In this document: piece after piece, positions 1 through 60,930 of the stretch | Layout of the letters: each line of letters begins with the position of its first letter | How positions within the stretch are numbered: position 1 is the first letter of the stretch | Source of the DNA: Eledone cirrhosa | Taxonomy: Eukaryota | Length of the DNA: 64,000 nucleotides | Direction of reading: 5' to 3' | Assembly (NCBI GenBank): GCA_964016885.1 | Contig: CAXHJY010001072.1 | Location: 14,500 to 78,499 of the forward strand | The notes under the pieces: generated by a model | What the model was told of the DNA's origin: nothing | The model's database searches: none | What the model saw: only the letters and a program-made list of their open reading frames with translations | Made by a program: the position numbers and the translations under genes

Positions 1-57
1 AAAGCAACTGGTGCGTGTGTTTCTTATTGGCAACATGACCCTCCCAAAGTATAACAA

Positions 58-58
<1 letters not shown>
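1..58 (+). mobile_element. 3' tail of a Penelope-like pseudo-LTR ending in a (TA)n tract (cut by window edge)
   Basis: Near-identical reverse complement of 63357-63413. Its terminal motif ATGACCCTCCC(N)AAGTATAACAAT also ends the PLE tails at 61673-61697 and 63031-63054. Confidence 0.6.
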
Positions 59-5500
<5,442 letters not shown>

Positions 5501-5625
5501 GTGAATATAGACATAGAATATTCGAAAATATTCTGTATGTTTATAATAAACATTTTGAAGACCTAATCGCTATAGAATAGAATACGTCACGTATTACAAT
5601 TAGATTCTCGATAAAAGCAAGGGAA

Positions 5626-5669
5626 GTAAATCTACGCGTTTCATTCTTATTAGAAATCGTCAGGACTAC
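5626..5669 (-). ncRNA. Minimal type I hammerhead ribozyme (further copies at 5937-5980, 6248-6291, 6631-6674)
   Basis: Minus strand: GTAGTC-CTGACGA-T TTCT AATA AGAA T-GAAA-CGCG-TA-GATTTAC. Core CUGANGA/GAAA/UH is intact; stem III is the palindrome ACGCGT. Confidence 0.82.
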
Positions 5670-6927
5670 ATATCCAGTGCTTTTATCGAGAATGACACAG
5701 CTAGAGACTTATAGAATACTTAGCTGTGTACAGGAACTGGTTTGAAAGAGCGGTTGCCGGTCCGGCAGAAATTAGAAATTGGAATAAATGCTCTGAAATA
5801 GCGATATATATGTGAATATAGACATAGAATATTCGAAAATATTCTGTATGTTTATAATAAACATTTTGAAGACCTAATCGCTATAGAATAGAATACGTCA
5901 CGTATTACAATTAGATTCTCGATAAAAGCAAGGGAAGTAAATCTACGCGTTTCATTCTTATTAGAAATCGTCAGGACTACATATCCAGTGCTTTTATCGA
6001 GAATGACACAGCTAGAGACTTATAGAATACTTAGCTGTGTACAGGAACTGGTTTGAAAGAGCGGTTGCCGGTCCGGCAGAAATTAGAAATTGGAATAAAT
6101 GCTCTGAAATAGCGATATATATGTGAATATAGACATAGAATATTCGAAAATATTCTGTATGTTTATAATAAACATTTTGAAGACCTAATCGCTATAGAAT
6201 AGAATACGTCACGTATTACAATTAGATTCTCGATAAAAGCAAGGGAAGTAAATCTACGCGTTTCATTCTTATTAGAAATCGTCAGGACTACATATCCAGT
6301 GCTTTTATCGAGAATGACACAGCTAGAGACTTATAGAATACTTAGCTGTGTACAGGAACTGGTTTGAAAGAGCGGTTGCCGGTCCGGCAGAAATTAGAAA
6401 TTGGAATAAATGCTCTGAATAAATGCTCTGAAATAAATGCTCTGAATAAATGCTCTGAAATAGCGATATATATGTGAATAAATGCTCTGAAATAGCGATA
6501 TATATGTGAATATAGACATAGAATATTCGAAAATATTCTGTATGTTTATAATAAACATTTTGAAGACCTAATCGCTATAGAATAGAATACGTCACGTATT
6601 ACAATTAGATTCTCGATAAAAGCAAGGGAAGTAAATCTACGCGTTTCATTCTTATTAGAAATCGTCAGGACTACATATCCAGTGCTTTTATCGAGAATGA
6701 CACAGCTAGAGACTTATAGAATACTTAGCTGTGTACAGGAACTGGTTTGAAAGAGCGGTTGCCGGTCCGGCAGAAATTAGAAATTAGAAATATCGCTATT
6801 TCAGAGCATTTATTCCAATTTCTAATTTCTGCCGGACCGGCAACCGCTCTTTCAAACCAGTTCCTGTACACAGCTAAGTATTCTATAAGTCTCTAGCTGT
6901 GTCATTCTCGATAAAAGCACTGGATAT

Positions 6928-6971
6928 GTAGTCCTGACGATTTCTAATAAGAATGAAACGCGTAGATTTAC
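6928..6971 (+). ncRNA. Minimal type I hammerhead ribozyme in the inverted unit
   Basis: gtagtc CTGACGA tttctaataagaat GAAA cgcg TA gatttac. Confidence 0.82.
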
Positions 6972-7130
6972 TTCCCTTGCTTTTATCGAGAATCTAATTG
7001 TAATACGTGACGTATTCTATTCTATAGCGATTAGGTCTTCAAAATGTTTATTATAAACATACAGAATATTTTCGAATATTCTATGTCTATATTCACATAT
7101 ATATCGCTATTTCAGAGCATTTATTCCAAT

Positions 7131-7218
7131 ATACATATATATATATACATATATATATATATCTATATACATATACATATATACATATACATATATATAT
7201 ACATATATATATATATAC

Positions 7219-7264
<46 letters not shown>

Positions 7265-7326
7265 CTATATACATATATATATCTATATACATATATATAT
7301 CTATATACATATATATATCTATATAC

Positions 7327-7373
<47 letters not shown>

Positions 7374-7616
7374 CATATACATATATATCTATATACATAT
7401 ACATATATACATATACATATATATATACATATATATATATACATATATATACATATATATATATACATATATATATATACATATATATATACACATATAT
7501 ATATATACATATATATATATACATATATATATATACATATATATATACATATATATATATACATATATATATATACATATATATATACATATATATATAT
7601 ACATATATATATATAC

Positions 7617-7647
<31 letters not shown>

Positions 7648-7776
7648 CATATATACATATATATACATATATATACATATATATATACATATATATATAC
7701 ATATATATATATATATGCATATATATATGCATATATATATACATATATACATATATGCATGCATATATATATCCAT

Positions 7777-7808
<32 letters not shown>

Positions 7809-7900
7809 GCATATATATATATACACACATATATATATATGCATATATATATATGCATATATATATACACATTCATATATATATGCATATATATATACAC

Positions 7901-7949
<49 letters not shown>

Positions 7950-19683: not shown

Positions 19684-20936
19684 GGTGCGGACGGTATTTG
19701 AGGACAGATTTATGGTTTAAAAAAACGCTTATATAATAACAGAAGAAAACTGTATTCTTATATAAATAACAAACAAAGATAAATTTAATAATTTCATTCA
19801 ATAAAACCACCATAAACATCAATAACTGCCTCTACACGGGATCGAAATCGTTTGCAAGCTCGGACTAAGTGGCCCTTGTTCATATTGGACATGACTCGAA
19901 TTATCGCTGCTTTCAAAGAATCTTTTGTGCTATGGGGGCGTTCAGTGACATTTTTCTCAACGATGCTCCATACATAGTAATCCAGTGGATTGAGATCTGG
20001 AGAATTAGGAGGCCAAATGTTCGGGGTGATGTGATCATGAAAATTGTTAGCCATCCATTCTTGTCTCAATTGAGCCTTGTGTGATGGTGCAGAATCTTGT
20101 TGAAAGACATAAGGCCTTCCATTGCATACACTGTTAATCCAAGGCTTAACAACTTTATCCAGAACCTCAATATACGCAGCAGCATTCACCCTAAGGCTTT
20201 GTTGAAAAGGGTGAGGAGGCATCACATGTCCTTCATTGCTAACAACACCCAAAACCATGACACTTGCAGGAAATTTTGTGTGCATTACTCTTGGAACCTC
20301 AGAAGGGGCTGCACATAGCCATCTGTCATTTCTTCTGTTACTTTTGTGGTCGTGGTCAAAGTTTTTCTCATCTGAGAAAAACCAAATCACACCATCTTCT
20401 GATGAATTTTTAAGTTTGTTTAAAAGTCGTTTGGATCTGATTAAACGCTTTTTTTTTTCTTTTTTTCTGACATGAATCTATCTCTCCTCATCACGTAAGA
20501 TTTGTATCTGATGTCTTCATACACAACATTTCTGATTGTTTTTTCTGACACACTAAAATTTTTTGCAATTGACCTCATTGATTTTCCTGGATTGTCATCA
20601 ATGTTTTGTTTAACTTCCCGAATAAATTCAGGTGTCCTGATAGAATCAGAGCGTTTGGAATGTTTTTTACGTTTTGATACAGGTAATACGCTTCCATCTT
20701 ATTTCTCTAACTCACACCGAATCTTGTGGACAAAAGATCTTGCAACTTTCAGAAAACGAGAAATTTCTAAATCCCCATGCTTAGCCTCCAAAGCCACAAT
20801 CACAGCAGGCCTTTTCATTTCATTAGTAAGCATAGTTATTTTCATTGTTATTTTCTGAAATAGAAGTTCAATAAAAATTAGTCAAATAAAATAATGACTA
20901 AAAATGCATGTGTCCTCAAATACCGTCCGCACCCTG
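19681..20936 (-). mobile_element. Full-length Tc1/mariner DD37D (maT-type) transposon with decayed transposase
   Basis: 26-bp TIRs CAGGGTGCGGACGGTATTTGAGGACA at 19681-19706 and 20911-20936; inserted in TA repeats. Confidence 0.92.
19794..20845 (-). pseudogene. DD37D transposase; catalytic half open, N-terminal half has a stop codon and probable frameshift
   Basis: FSDEKNF...QQDSAPSH...SPDLNPLDY with 37 aa between D2 and D3. N-terminus reads MKITMLTNEMKRPAVIVAL...CELEK*. Confidence 0.88.
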
Positions 20937-26807: not shown

Positions 26808-26950
26808 GAAACGTGTAATTTACTACACAAAACGAAGGTTATAGAGAAAATTGAGGTTGGTAATGGCACATGGAATATATAAGAGACAGAATACTTTTTT
26901 GTGAAAAAACATATAATTTTATAAGGTAAGGAAATAATAAAGGGTATAAA

Positions 26951-26997
26951 AAATGACCGGTTTCGATGGGTCTGCAAAAGCCATCTTTTCAAATGTT
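26951..26997 (-). ncRNA. Degenerate HHR-like motif (PLE pseudo-LTR relic)
   Basis: TTGAAAA-GATGG cttttgcagac CCATC-GAAA-CCGG-TC; core deviates from CUGANGA and stem I is weak. Confidence 0.4.
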
Positions 26998-27349
26998 GAT
27001 TAATATTAAGAAAAATTAATAATAGGAAGAGTTAAAATTTGAGATTTGAAAATTCAAGTATAAAATTCATTGTGGGATTTCATAGTAGTTTTCATCTTGG
27101 TAGCAGCTCGTTGACTGCTTCTGGTAGTGAATGAGAAGTTATTTGGGGGTGTGGGTTATTTTATAAAGGTCAAATTTAGCAATGGCCAGATGGCCAGCTG
27201 CTGGTCAGTGAGGGGTGGAAGCAATATACATACATATATCTTCCTGTGCTCGGTAGGAGAGGGGAGATTGATAGAAAGGGATTTAGTGCACTTACACCTA
27301 TATATACACACATACCTTCATCCACACATACATACATATACATATACAT

Positions 27350-28970: not shown

Positions 28971-29375
28971 ATAAAATATTAAACAAATAATGAACAAACA
29001 ATTCCTTATATTAAACAAAAAAAGTTCACTATTTAACGATCGTTTCTAGGGTATATATGTGTTATAATTGGTATGCATATTCAACAGATCTATGTACAAA
29101 ATTACAGTAATTTTGTACATAGATCTGCTGAATATGCATACCAATTATAACACATATATACCCTAGAAACGATCGTTAAATAGTGAACTTTTTTTGTTTA
29201 ATATAAGGAATTGTTTGTTCATTATTTGTTTAATATTTTATCTTGACTCTGTATACCGTTTATCTTTCACCGAAAGTGGATTTTCATTACATCTCTTCTT
29301 TCCATGATATCCGGAATACATTGAGTTCTTCATACGGATTGGACACTACCGTAAACTCTTGGTAGATTTATCTAC
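28971..29375 (-). mobile_element. Pseudo-LTR-like unit with a 135-bp-arm fold-back palindrome (28971-29241, centre 29106)
   Basis: Arms differ at about 1 position; 29235-29375 is homologous in inverse orientation to 43375-43515. Confidence 0.7.
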
Positions 29376-30395: not shown

Positions 30396-30561
30396 AATAT
30401 ATATATATAAATATATATATATAAATATGTGGAAAGTTATATTTAAATTGTTGGGTTACAACGAGTAAATATTTATAACTGATATAAAAGCACTCAACAA
30501 GTATTTGGAGTATATTTACGATATTAAATAAATGGAAATTATATTTATAAAACCATATTTA

Positions 30562-30623
30562 TTTCATTATATATATTTCAGGGATATCATATTAAAAATA
30601 TGTTATGCCTTCTTCAGACAAAA
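30562..30623 (-). ncRNA. Type I hammerhead motif in 3' pseudo-LTR (identical copy at 34393-34454)
   Basis: TTTTGT-CTGAAGA-AGG...CCT-GAAA-TATATA-TA-ATGAAA. Confidence 0.72.
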
Positions 30624-30882
30624 TACAATATAAACAGTCTTATAAATAGATAGATTCGACATACCTTTCAACATCGACTTGCATTTGAAAAGTTGATTTG
30701 GTAGTAAAAATATTATGGACAGTTGTAAAAAGAAAGAAAGAAAGAAAGAAAGAAAGAAAAACGAAGAAAAAGAAGAAATGCATGCAACTAAATAGAGAGA
30801 GATAGAAAGATATATAGAGAAGAAATTCATGTAAAGAAACAGATAGAGATATATAGAGAGAGGAAAAAAAATAGAGGGAGAT

Positions 30883-30914
<32 letters not shown>

Positions 30915-31990
30915 AAATATAGAGAGATAGATATAGATAGAGATAGAGAGAAAGAAACTAGGTAGTTGAGCACCAGTTGAATGACGTATCAATGATACAT
31001 TTATTTATTTATTTATTTATTTATTTAGCTCTAGTAGAGAGAGATATATGTGGTTAGGAGAGTAAACAGCCGTTATATAGAGAGAAAAAAGAAAAATAAC
31101 CAGACATAAACGAGGCAGATTTAAAACACTATGTTTCATCAGCGCAGAAATATTAGTTCGTATAAAACAGGCATTATAATGTAAATATCAGTATTCATGA
31201 ATGAGACACGTATCTATAATGTGTGAAAAATAATGATCATATGTCTAGTTTAAAAATCCATAGGTCCACACCAGAGCCGAGATAAAATAGAAGGTTATCC
31301 CATATTCAATACTATAAACATGTGAATTTACGTGATCAACTCTGCAAATTCCTATTTCACACGAAAACATTCTCATTGTGCTATAAAAGTTCTAGTATAC
31401 ATATATGTGTACACACATATATATATAGAGTCTATATTAATTTTAACAATACTATTCTTGTCTTTACTCTACATGACCATCGTTCAAGCAGAGATAGAGA
31501 ACAGACACCAATACATTAATAAAATAATAAAAAGAAAAAAAAAATATCAGAAACAAAAAATAAATAAACAGAAAACTAAAAAATATTAAGAATAAAAATA
31601 TTAAAAATGTTAAAAAATATTAAAAAATATTAAAAAATAAAACATAGTATGCCCCGCAAATCCACCACAGAGATCAGCCCTTCAAAGTTAATCGACAATA
31701 TATTGCCAAGTTCATTATAAGCATCAGAATCAAAAGCAAACAAAACCAAAAATTATTTACCAAATCCTGTCTAGCAGAAAAACATTCCAAAAGTTTAGGA
31801 TACCCATTTGGTCTACAGATGTTCTTATATTTAATATAGAAGTTTATCTAGTGTAAAATTTATTCGATATATTTGGAGCTTCAGCTTTTAGGGTAGTTAA
31901 TTATTCATGAAGAATGTTTAAAATAAAAAAGAAGAAATCGAAAGATTTATCTGCGAGTTTCATAAATAATTACAAATCAAACTAAATAAA

Positions 31991-34215
31991 CTACATTTTA
32001 AATTTAAATTTATATTTAAAAGTTGAGTTCAATCTATGTCTGCAACAACTGAATAAATTTGTCCGTAAATTAAGGGAATTTTTAGATTTTAGTATAAAGA
32101 ATATCTCCTCCGCGCAGAGGTCACATGTCTCAGAGGATGAATTAAAAGGAATCCCTCTTGAGACTATATTCCAAGCCGTCGAATATCTAACGTTATCATG
32201 TCTAAGTTGCCAGAGTAACCCTGATAGTGCTGTTGAGGACTTTTTGCTTGGATCTGTGAAAGAATTCTTGTAGTTATTATAGCGAAGTTTAAATTCCGTC
32301 GATGTGGAACCAACGTAGTTAAAAGAATTAAAGTCCGTTTTAACATTACAGTTGTATATTATATTTTTAACTAAGCAATTGTTATTTAACGGACATTTAG
32401 ATCTATCTCTACAGTTACATTTGTTAACTTGGATATTATTTATGCTATTATCGGTATTTTGGCTAGGTTTTAAGTTCCTATTATTTATTCTATTAATATT
32501 TTGTGCTAAATTTTTGGTGGATGAGTAGGTTAATTTTATAGTATGTCTATTGAAAATTGAGTGATACCTATGTGTTCCAGGGAAGCGATTATCAAGAGCT
32601 TTAAAAAATAGTTTAGCGATGTGGGTTTTAATGTTTAGTGAGAAGGGGGGGGGGCAAACCATATTATATTCCTAGTTCTATTTCTTTTTTGGCTTTTGGA
32701 ATTATTGTGATGCTTTCTATTATAGTTGTTAAAGTTGTGGCCGTAATTAAAATAGTTGTTATTTTGTTTAGTTTGTCTATCATTATCTATGTACATAATT
32801 TTATCACTATATCCTGCTCTAGCTAACGCTTCATTGTAATATTGGGCTTTTTCGTCGAAAATCTTTTTATTAGATGAGATTCTAGAGATACGTTTTTGAA
32901 CAGAGTTTACTATAGTATTTTTAACAGATCTGGGGTGGTTAGAGTTAAAGCTGACATAGTTTAAGTTTTCATTCAACTTGTGAAATGGATAGTGAAGACA
33001 TGTGTTGAGATTTAATGTTACATCTAGGAAATTGACTATTCTATGGTTATTCTCAATTTCTATTTTTAGATTAAAGTAATTAAAAAATTGTGTAATTTGT
33101 TTTCTTTTTCTATTTAGTTCAGAGTTATTATTTTCAATAAGTAAAAGCATGTCATCTCTATATAAACCTCCGGTAGCACCGGGTATTTTTCTATGCAGCG
33201 AATTGATTAAAAGTAGGCCCACAAGGTCAGTTACCTGAGCTGAGTCGGATGATCCCATAGTAATGTCAAAATTGTTATCTCTATCTGCTCTGGTCCATAG
33301 TTGGTCATTAAATTCTATCAATGTTTTCCTAGCCGATAATATAATGTGCATTTCATTGCTAGTTAGGTCTGTATGTTTGAATGCGTAATTTAGTGCCTTA
33401 TTTAGTAGATTAGGGGTAATAGAAGAATAATAGTTAGCAATATCTAGTTGAATAAACTTATTATTATTGTTATATTTAATTTCTTTAAACCACTCAACAA
33501 CCTCTCCAGTTCCCTTCCACAAGCTCAAGTTAGGCAAACAATTCAAGTTTTTAATTTGCTGTATCACCCTGTCAAGAATGTTTTTGCTTAGTTTACCCAG
33601 GTCCGATTTTGATGGTGCAATCAATCTGACTGGCAAGTCATTTTCAAAATTTCTTTTGTGATCTTTCATATTGATCTTCGGTTTCCTGGGCACGAAAGGT
33701 TGTGTTCTGTTCTCAATTTCCAACTCATGCATTATACAAGATGCCTCAACATTCATTTTCTCAAGCTCGGCCTTATCTGCTACCTTGTACTTTTTCCTCA
33801 GTTCTTTCAGTATGAGGCCATTATACATGTCTTTTTGCACTCCATAGAGGTTGTTGGTCTTGTCAGATTTCACCAAGATCTTCTCAGTTTTCTCTAAGCT
33901 CTCAATATTATCTTTAATGCCTTTCAGATGTTCCTGGCCTTTGAAGTTTCTCTTGAATTTGACTCCTTGTATGATAGAAATTATATCGTTTTCAAAGTCA
34001 AATAAAAGTTTGTTGGGGGGTGGATTTCTTTTAGATTTGAAAACTTTGTCTAAGTCCGAGACATTTTCATTTATATTAGATTTATCAAAGTGGAATGCTC
34101 GCCACCTGATTCTCCTTATAAAAGAGTCAGATTTATCTATTAATTGTTTAATAAAGTCTTTGTTTCTAGGTAGAGGTATGTCTTTTAAAGAGGAAGTAAT
34201 CTTAAAGAATTCCAT
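31991..34215 (-). CDS. PLE reverse transcriptase + GIY-YIG endonuclease, ~740 aa if joined; single frameshift at the G10 run 32645-32654
   Basis: RT motifs QLDIANYYSSI, ITMGSSDSAQVTDLVG, YRDDML, VNFLDV. Junction IIWFAPP|FSLNIKT. Linker CNCRDRSKC (CxCx5C). Endonuclease motifs NIIY...YVGST...R...CDLCAEE...LN...CRH. Confidence 0.92.
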
Positions 34216-34704
34216 TTTTTCAGTTATAATATAAAGCGCTCAACAGTATTGGAGCAAGATACATGGAAAGTTATATTTAAATTGTTGGGTTACGAGTAAA
34301 TATTTATAACTGATATAAAAGCACTCAACAAGTATTTGGAGTATATTTACGATATTAAATAAATGGAAATTATATTTATAAAACCATATTTATTTCATTA
34401 TATATATTTCAGGGATATCATATTAAAAATATGTTATGCCTTCTTCAGACAAAATACAATATAAACAGTCTTATAAATAGATAGATTCGACATACCTTTC
34501 AACATTGACTTGCATTTGAAAAGTTGATTTGGTAGTAAAAATATTATGGACAGTTGTAAAAAGAAAGAAAGAAAGAAAGAAAGAAAAACGAAGAAAAAAA
34601 AGAAATGCATGCAACTAAATAGAGAGAGATAGAAAGATATATAGAGAAGAAATTCATGTAAAGAAACAGATAGAGATATATAGAGAGAGGAAAAAAAATA
34701 GAGG

Positions 34705-35015: not shown

Positions 35016-35738
35016 TGCAAACCACAGGTCACAGCTCAGCCAACATTCCTGTTATATATCGTTGTGCAAACCACAGGTCACAGCTGAGCCAACATTCCTG
35101 TTATATATCGTTGTGCAAACCACAGGTCACAGCTGAGCCAACATTCCTGTTATATAACATTGTGCAAACCACAGGTCACAGCTGAGCCAACATTCCTGTT
35201 ATATATCGTTGTGCAAACCACACGTCACACCTGAGCTAACATTCCTGTTACATCTCATTGTGCAAACCACAGGTCACAGCTGAGCCAACATTCCTGTTAT
35301 ATATCATTGTGCAAACCACAGGTCACAGCTGAGCCAACATTCCTGTTATATATCATTGTGCAAACCACAGGTCACAGCTGAGCCAACATTCCTGTTATAT
35401 ATCGTTGTGCAAACCACAGGTCACACCTGAGCCAACATTCCTGTTATATATCATTGTGCAAACCACAGGTCACAGCTGAGCCAACATTCCTGTTATATAT
35501 TATTGTGCAAACCACAGGTCACAGCTGAGCCAACATTCCTGTTATATATCGTTGTGCAAACCACAGGTCACACCTGAGCTAACATTCCTGTTACATCTCA
35601 TTGTGCAAACCACAGGTCACAGCTGAGCCAACATTCCTGTTATATATCATTGTGCAAACCACAGGTCACAGCTGAGCCAACATTCCTGTTATATATCGTT
35701 GTGCAAACCACAGGTCACAGCTGAGCCAACATTCCTGT
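35016..35738 (+). repeat. 49-bp minisatellite, ~14.8 copies, with a 7-mer (343-bp) higher-order repeat
   Basis: Unit tgcaaaccacaggtcacagctgagccaacattcctgttatatatc(g/a)ttg. The variant unit cacctgagctaac...ttacatctcattg recurs 343 bp apart. Confidence 0.93.
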
Positions 35739-39418: not shown

Positions 39419-39695
39419 CTTGGGGAATCAGCTGGATTAGTTGGAGACGGTTGCTTCTGACAGGACCCACTGTAAGGAGTGTTTGAGGATTCTGTCACTT
39501 GGGGAATCAGCTGGATTAGTTGGAGACGGTTGCTTCTGACAGGACCCACTGTAAGGAGTGTTTGAGGACTCTGTCACTTGGGGAATCAGCTGGATTAGTT
39601 GGAGACGGTTGCTTCTGACAGGACCCGCTGTAAGGAGTGTTTGAGGATTCTGCCCCGACGACCTTCTCAGGAATAAGTGGGCGAAGAAGAAGAAG
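39419..39695 (+). mobile_element. RTE 3' end with a 79-bp segment in tandem triplicate
   Basis: ttggggaatcagctggattagttggagacggttgcttctgac... x3; homologous to 17440-17557; gaa tail. Confidence 0.8.
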
Positions 39696-53390: not shown

Positions 53391-53690
53391 TTTTTATTTT
53401 ATAGAAGGAGCTTCTACAGGACTAGTACTGTTTCATTCAGATGAAATCTTCAAAAAGCACTCTGGCTAATTGACCACTCCCCAAAGAAAAAACGGCCTGT
53501 GCCATGTTGTGGTCCTGTGTATCTAAATACCATCCTACCCCCCAAAATCCCCCCCCCCCAGCCACCACCCCTCCCTTACCACTACCTAAATGTATAAATA
53601 CCAGAACTTAATATGACACCCAGCTTCCTGAAGATTTCATCTGAATGAAACAGTACTAGTCCTGTAGAAGCTCCTTCTATAAAATAAAAA
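53391..53690 (+). mobile_element. HHR unit with ~68-bp inverted duplication covering the ribozyme
   Basis: 53391-53458 is the reverse complement of ~53623-53690. Confidence 0.8.
53622..53672 (+). ncRNA. Type I hammerhead ribozyme
   Basis: AGCTTC-CTGAAGA-t TTC atct GAA t-GAAA-CAG tactagtc CTG-TA-GAAGCT. Confidence 0.85.
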
Positions 53691-53759
53691 AATTTTACTC
53701 TGCCATGTATTGAGTACCTTACTTACTGTGGTTATCCCCGACTCAACCCGGGACCTACG

Positions 53760-60930
<7,171 letters not shown>

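Follow-up and report, generated by a model that had tools for sequence, protein, structure and literature searches.

How does a short ribozyme repeat come to lie in a genome as a head-to-tail array with one copy turned around? The question is raised by an array near the left end of the window, by which we mean the whole 64,000-nt stretch of Eledone cirrhosa DNA analysed here. An earlier sequence-only reading had proposed a hammerhead retrozyme or viroid-like circular RNA, written into the genome by rolling-circle reverse transcription. We find that the array belongs to a dispersed family of non-coding 311-nt hammerhead repeats and represents a single, very young insertion of it, and the ends, arms and internal variants of its relatives bear on how such insertions are made.

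Layout of the array

Four direct units and one inverted unit do lie within (TA)n DNA (Table 1), as had been described. They are not four clean direct units, however, since the third covers unit positions 1-301 only and a stutter splits it from the fourth. The units at 5497-5807 and 5808-6118 show no difference in sequence, and 6119-6419 is an exact match to unit positions 1-301, so that the left arm is made up of identical units throughout. In this arm the plus strand would be the cDNA sense and the minus strand the ribozyme RNA sense. The stutter likely arose by polymerase slippage on GAATA-like microhomology.

Table 1. Coordinates of the array and its flanks in the window.
Feature	Position	Strand	Details
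(TA)n-type microsatellite	57-5494	.	left flank and insertion target
Left arm	5495-6419	+	2.97 units; outer end in start zone A (unit 308-9)
Hammerhead 1	5604-5693	-	within perfect 16-bp stem 5604-5619/5678-5693; predicted cut 5633/5632
Hammerhead 1 core	5663-5657 and 5642-5633	-	
Hammerhead 2	5915-6004	-	identical unit; predicted cut 5944/5943
Hammerhead 3	6226-6315	-	predicted cut 6255/6254
Stutter	6420-6475	+	56 nt; unit 286-11, which lies between the two start sites, copied again in short pieces
Fourth direct unit	6476-6785	+	unit 286 to 284; minus-strand hammerhead 4, predicted cut 6638/6637
Central inversion junction	6786-6791	.	short extra AGAAAT-type repeat
Right inverted arm	6790-7130	-	341 nt; 1.1 units
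Hammerhead 5	6934-6940 and 6955-6964 (core)	+	in right arm; predicted cut 6964/6965
PLE-type tail	7096-7130	-	35 nt (unit 282 to 5); spans the interval from one start site to the other, with start site B (unit 282) outermost
(TA)n-type microsatellite	7131-7946	.	right flank

Hammerhead motif and RNA folding

On the minus strand of the direct units we read a type I hammerhead motif. The first half of its core is CUGACGA, with a 4-bp stem II that has a U.U at its base; the second half is GAAAC-GC-GUA, with a palindromic stem III, and the predicted cut falls at unit 137/136. The motif is present in all five window units, in agreement with the sequence-only reading, and the core was seen on one strand only of the unit. 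Because an Rfam search gave no hammerhead match and found no other ribozyme, the assignment rests on the motif together with covariation. Among six units from three families, 27 of the 72 predicted pairs carry double changes, and these are concentrated in the enclosing stem and in stems I and II. This covariation points to selection on the RNA fold, three lineages being a small sample.

The strong self-pairing proposed for the unit is borne out in nearly every part. The 16-bp stem that encloses the ribozyme is a perfect inverted repeat, and positions 5566-5573 and 5798-5805 are exact complements that could form an 8-bp long-range pair. Both appear in the circular minimum free energy (MFE) structure of the ribozyme strand, together with hairpins at 5513-5536, 5581-5595, 5695-5729 and 5755-5767; the one other hairpin that had been named, 5537-5553, is found in the sequence but does not stand as its own hairpin in that structure. 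Circular-mode folding, which had been suggested as a check, places the ribozyme strand below its shuffles (z -4.4), and with linear folding the z-score is -5.0, none of 100 shuffles being as good. The opposite strand folds equally well (z -5.6). With circular and with linear folding alike, the MFE structure is without the catalytic hammerhead fold.

Copies and related families

A DNA search of the 3.0-Gb genome from which the window comes returned at least 425 matches on many contigs. Genome-wide, the hammerhead core pattern occurs 15,136 times (reversed control, 0) and the exact ribozyme of the window 495 times, and stem II of the 311-nt family accompanies 100 of the 100 core matches listed. 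Two-armed loci, described below, hold a mean of ~9 units, from which the core count would correspond to roughly 1,600 insertions in the genome. The family is dispersed, with loci on many large contigs and with different flanks. From flank to flank the elements consist of unit sequence only, with no ORF in any of them. By its sequence features, namely a tandem non-coding unit, a hammerhead in each unit and many loci, we would place the family among the non-LTR retrozymes, and in this the earlier proposal of a retrozyme dispersed genome-wide is upheld. Its stated alternative, that the unit exists only as the pLTR of an autonomous Penelope-like element (PLE), was checked as well, and no ORF-bearing host element was seen at any locus examined.

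Two older sister families are 67-80% identical to the 311-nt unit. The core is kept in both, in one as a U3-A8 variant, and so is the stretch around unit 282-77. Older sister retrozymes were observed at L137:5382-5695, L142:7521-8165 and L049:2435-2870, where stems II and III differ, the start-site region is common to them and one of the two families has the U3-A8 core. A further sister-family array at L233 (G000:C14:23498600-23508599) has ~28 units arranged as a 12-unit higher-order repeat of shorter sub-repeats.

Two arms with fixed, unlike ends

Insertion ends were read in 92 regions, gathered as four sets. We defined zone A as unit 308-9, with most ends at 6, and zone B as unit 275-289, with most ends at 282. 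The first set, 17 loci found by similarity with the window included, held 16 two-armed loci, all 16 with zone A at one end and zone B at the other, and 1 one-armed locus adjoining a run of N. The second, 15 loci taken by hammerhead pattern in genome order, held 12 two-armed loci, 11 of them A+B and one (L128) with B plus an irregular end; 3 loci were one-armed, one of these cut by N. In the third set of 40 regions, chosen by their B junction, there were 37 two-armed loci, plus one more element within L182; every one of these, L173 with its 17-nt arm included, had A at the other end, and 3 regions were one-armed. The fourth, 20 regions chosen by an A junction for which no exact B partner was listed, gave 18 two-armed loci, all with B opposite, and 2 one-armed ones. 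Across the four sets, 83 of 84 two-armed loci are A+B, and neither AA nor BB occurs. In C1, with 100 B and 72 A junctions, each of the 42 junction pairs that converge within 15 kb joins an A to a B, a count that overlaps the loci read above and is not independent of them.

The expectation of permuted ends, which follows from the sequence-only reading, is thus contradicted by outer ends fixed at two sites. These lie 35 nt apart in the unit, 131 nt (~6) and 166 nt (~282) 3' of the predicted cut. Genome-wide, (TA)6 junctions number 956 at unit 282 and 681 at unit 6, against 0 at the cut site, and we have rejected a start at the 3' end of cleaved RNA on this count. Orientation is constant too: the ribozymes face outward in every case, and each arm can accordingly be read as a cDNA grown inward from its flank. 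The inner ends are scattered, and most joins between them show a short overlap or a small insertion; which of the two arms is longer varies. That one arm is a DNA copy of the other is unlikely, given that the ends differ and that either arm can be longer. L1-style twin priming, in which one arm ends at the start of the other, fits the window but not the scattered inner ends elsewhere.

The flanks are mostly pure (TA)n. As candidate target-site duplications, for which more than 4 bp is expected in non-LTR retrozymes that have one, direct repeats of 11-44 nt are present at L133, L135, L142 and L154, and the repetitiveness of the target could itself yield them. At L031:1952-2856, 27 nt of unique sequence lying outside the (TA)n are duplicated in inverted orientation on either side of the insertion.

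The combination of unlike, fixed ends with an inverted arm is the PLE integration signature, a feature that goes beyond what the sequence-only reading had seen.

Penelope-like elements and the search for a partner

PLE insertions are described as having an inverted 5'-truncated copy, a tail of 30-40 bp that is frequently confined to a single end, and (TA)n as a target (Craig et al. 2021, PMC8557442). For the Poseidon protein of Anolis it is reported that both strands of AT-rich DNA are cut and extended in vitro, that two internal start sites bound the tail, and that hammerhead cleavage is dispensable there, uncut RNA being the main template (Frangieh et al. 2024, PMC11167929). In the 311-nt family we likewise find an inverted 5'-truncated copy, a one-sided 35-nt tail and an internal start. 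By analogy, a PLE enzyme is the likely writer of these retrozyme insertions.

The genome has 10,598 GIY-YIG candidates, of which 150 were scored and 50 loci read, and it contains RT plus GIY-YIG ORFs of 930-1,026 aa. Four ORF-bearing PLEs (L080, L083, L092 and L095) have the same inverted, one-tailed layout in (TA)n, and several genomic PLEs carry a hammerhead ~70-215 nt before their ends. The PLE families of L078, L080, L083, L092 and L095 differ in tail length (~28, 38 and 65 nt), and their hammerhead cores are variants, U3-A8 among them. An autonomous PLE with the 282-77 module was seen in 0 of the 50 GIY-YIG loci, and 9 one-armed or odd loci read for chimeras gave no partner PLE. One ORF-linked PLE family has ~70% similarity to the 311-nt unit over 80 nt around the hammerhead; it is older, with copies 94-97% identical, and its follow-up yielded no partner.

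The window itself holds further repeats. A near full-length PLE-type element at 31991-34239 (minus strand) has an RT frame of 534 aa and, across a frameshift, another of 226 aa in which a cysteine linker and an endonuclease-like end can be seen; it has direct terminal repeats, at ~30427-30950 and 34240-34700, ends in (TA)n and shows no sequence match to the 311-nt unit. At 53395-53760 lies a short, inverted and truncated 3' end of another hammerhead family, also ending in (TA)n, with its core near 53629 and a U.U at the base of stem II, kin to the ORF-linked PLE family in L083 and L270. Short PLE-like 3' fragments in (TA)n are found at 26808-27030 and 28981-29370, the second being a palindromic pair with a one-sided extension. 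Two near-identical elements of ~450 bp (55556-56010 and 57860-58310) sit inside a large (TA)n tract, and a related copy is located upstream of the ORF in L079. There are tandem repeats at 35016-35738 (period 49, 14.8 copies) and 39419-39652 (period 79, 3 copies), and a 227-aa frame at 19794-20477 (minus strand) that resembles a fragment of a mariner-type DDD transposase.

A common template for both arms

Among the 49 fully overlapping two-armed loci of sets 2-4, the majority haplotype is the same in both arms at 46. There are 25 haplotypes in these 49 loci, for which chance concordance would be 7.7%, and 18 haplotypes were seen once, each in both arms, though they may not be private genome-wide. 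The exceptions are L156, whose discordant arms differ in register, L159, where one base differs in a 1.2-unit arm, and L181, discussed below.

For the cut-site, inner-end and mosaic counts, five inner-rearranged loci were set aside, the window among them. The cut site at 136/137 is unchanged in 805 of 807 passes, and both changed passes are in L147. Inner ends within 131-142 number 3 of 150 against 5.8 expected, and run-off at a cleaved 5' end was not seen. In the same locus set arms reach 22.9 units, and several have no variant unit. The unscarred cut site and the haplotype concordance together make cut linear templates and end-to-end jumping unlikely. Both arms thus read one RNA molecule, which is likely circular. 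Scars of A-to-I editing were looked for and the idea dropped, since the 35 variants found locus-wide in 60 loci include 8 T>C against 7 A>G (p 0.61); singleton variants, 20 A>G and 9 T>C, are too weak to use.

Internal variants bear further on the template. In L181 two units of one haplotype are followed by another, with the same switch in both arms, and in L164 and L192 a variant in the first copy only is common to both arms. We accepted these three loci as in-register mosaics; other apparent sharing was mostly a miscount of locus-wide variants in 310-nt units. The mosaics strengthen the claim of one molecule read by both arms, and they imply that the template there had at least two different units, which rules out a monomer circle at these loci. 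Elsewhere, two variants in L147 recur at 7-unit spacing, and variant units in one 44-unit arm recur irregularly; these patterns, and the 12-unit higher-order repeat of L233, could come from oligomeric circles or from satellite-like turnover and duplication of DNA. The earlier idea of a rolling-circle reverse transcript remains the favoured reading, but with a mixed multimer as template at three loci.

Proposed mechanism and its alternatives

We consider it probable that the two mirror arms are written by a borrowed PLE RT-endonuclease. Starting at both ends of a (TA)n break, it would copy one RNA, and this RNA would probably be a circle made by the ribozyme. Arrays would be transcribed on the hammerhead strand. 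To judge from other animals, weak hammerheads with palindromic stem III may cut as dimers, and the cleavage products, mostly monomers and sometimes oligomers, may be ligated into circles. A PLE protein would bind the conserved module at unit 282-77 and nick both (TA)n strands. One strand would then be primed at unit ~6 and the other at ~282, the positions at which the ends are observed. Both cDNAs cross the cut site over several unit lengths, most simply by running round a circle, and the two truncated cDNAs would finally be joined mid-element at the short microhomologies seen at the junctions. The more specific version, in which both break ends are primed on one ribozyme-made circle, always one at each site, by a PLE enzyme that has two active sites and copies the circle lap after lap, we regard as evenly poised. 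If true, double rolling-circle target-primed reverse transcription would have left its record in these arrays, and PLE tails, inversions and tandems would be explained by one mechanism.

The most serious alternative, which we hold to be unlikely although it deserves real weight, keeps the same PLE double priming and takes as template a donor array transcribed into long linear RNA that stays uncut, with the hammerhead minor in copying and with array length and uniformity arising from DNA-level duplication and conversion. The mosaics that L164, L181 and L192 carry in register in their two arms are what such a transcript would give, as are long arrays with recurring variant units; uncut RNA is the main Poseidon template in vitro (PMC11167929), and an unscarred cut site is equally expected. 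Circles are favoured over it because truncation at the 5' end would shorten linear copies, and so the arrays, in each round, and because the 25 internally uniform haplotypes in 49 loci would need repeated bottlenecks of one unit. A linear transcript should also hand donor singletons to both arms, whereas shared singletons are found in 3 loci, and 65 variant calls in the stretches covered by both arms are unshared (a count that includes alignment noise and later mutations). Covariation of the ribozyme and its enclosing stem across families speaks against a minor role for the hammerhead.

Far less probable is an RT whose templates are cleaved linear monomers or oligomers and which, on reaching the 5' end of one, jumps to the 3' end of another. 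The switch interval in L181 does include the cut site. Against this, the passes across that site are almost all scarless, inner ends are not piled up there, no insertion starts at the cut 3' end, and jumps among 25 haplotypes should mix units, yet the arms are uniform. We regard jumping as largely refuted.

We give similarly little credence to a viroid-like RNA that replicates from RNA to RNA and occasionally integrates. Strong folding of both strands and the many haplotypes would suit it, but the hammerhead core was seen on one strand only, where viroid-like RNAs usually have ribozymes in both polarities, the fold is branched, PLE-type ends are found at every locus, and RT errors and bottlenecks account for the diversity. 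With no second ribozyme from Rfam either, the viroid-like label of the sequence-only reading is left unsupported. Least credible of all is an assembly artefact, or a satellite that spreads at the DNA level through fold-back duplications. In its favour, the window is on a small 78-kb contig, the copies are identical and fold-back chimeras occur in sequencing. Against it, many large contigs carry loci, each with flanks of its own; the two arms stop at unlike fixed sites, which is impossible by fold-back; either arm can be longer; and the outward orientation of the ribozymes is fixed.

Comparison with known systems

The copying of a ribozyme-made circle by a PLE enzyme, the reading we prefer, has precedents as a proposal. 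Metazoan non-LTR retrozymes were defined by Cervera and de la Peña (2020, PMC7229834), with circles in coral, mussel and axolotl detected by northern blot and PLE-driven copying of the circles proposed. The same proposal had been made for PLE tandems by these authors in 2014, together with a description of opposite-strand hammerhead pairs 100-700 bp apart (PMC4209133), and the PLE-circle model is repeated in a 2020 review (PMC7761336). More recently retrozymes were linked to pLTRs by phylogeny, and 8 of 9 Xenopus retrozyme dimers were without cleavage in vitro (Li, Clavereau and Pollet 2026, 10.64898/2026.07.22.740005). The 311-nt family resembles the metazoan retrozymes of these reports (PMC7229834, 10.64898/2026.07.22.740005) in its non-coding tandem unit of 150-450 nt, low GC, a type I hammerhead in each unit, strong self-pairing, thousands of copies and PLEs in the same genome, and the axolotl Amex2 motif is described with the same U.U mismatch at the base of helix II. 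It is unlike them, as far as the published text describes them, in its two-armed inversion, its fixed unlike ends and the haplotype common to both arms. PLE mobilisation and the copying of circles are proposed there without insertion-level evidence. The motif is also like described hammerheads with a short palindromic helix III that are predicted to act as dimers, with a U3-A8 variant in a sister family; it is unlike them in its 2-nt palindromic loop 3 (GAAAC-GC-GUA), in having no G10.1-C11.1 pair and in forming ORF-less multimers.

With EN+ PLEs (PMC8557442, PMC11167929) the family has in common the inverted 5'-truncated copy, a one-sided tail of 30-40 bp, a (TA)n or AT-rich target, two internal starts 3' of the hammerhead cut and extension of both strands. 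Unlike them it has no ORF, and each arm is a multimer of a short unit. The use of one start site per strand, near-absolute in the 311-nt family, also differs from Poseidon in vitro, for which the two strands are reported not to differ in start site (PMC11167929). MRC1 and other non-autonomous Chlamys elements (PMC8557442) have 3' ends like those of their autonomous partners; no such partner was found for the 311-nt family among the 50 GIY-YIG loci, and most Chlamys, as they are described there, are without canonical hammerheads, in which this family differs.

Within the main texts covered by our literature search, no two-armed retrozyme array with fixed unlike ends and a shared template was found. 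How animal retrozymes spread, and why PLE insertions combine tandems, an inverted copy and a one-sided tail, are questions which that literature leaves open. More than 1,000 young insertions with internal markers now tie a retrozyme to PLE chemistry, both arms having the same template, and a 311-nt substrate with two known start sites offers a direct test of circle versus linear template. For genome writing, too, a module by which a PLE is made to insert multimers into (TA)n could be of interest. What the present analysis adds is the counts, the cut-site control and the mosaic loci.
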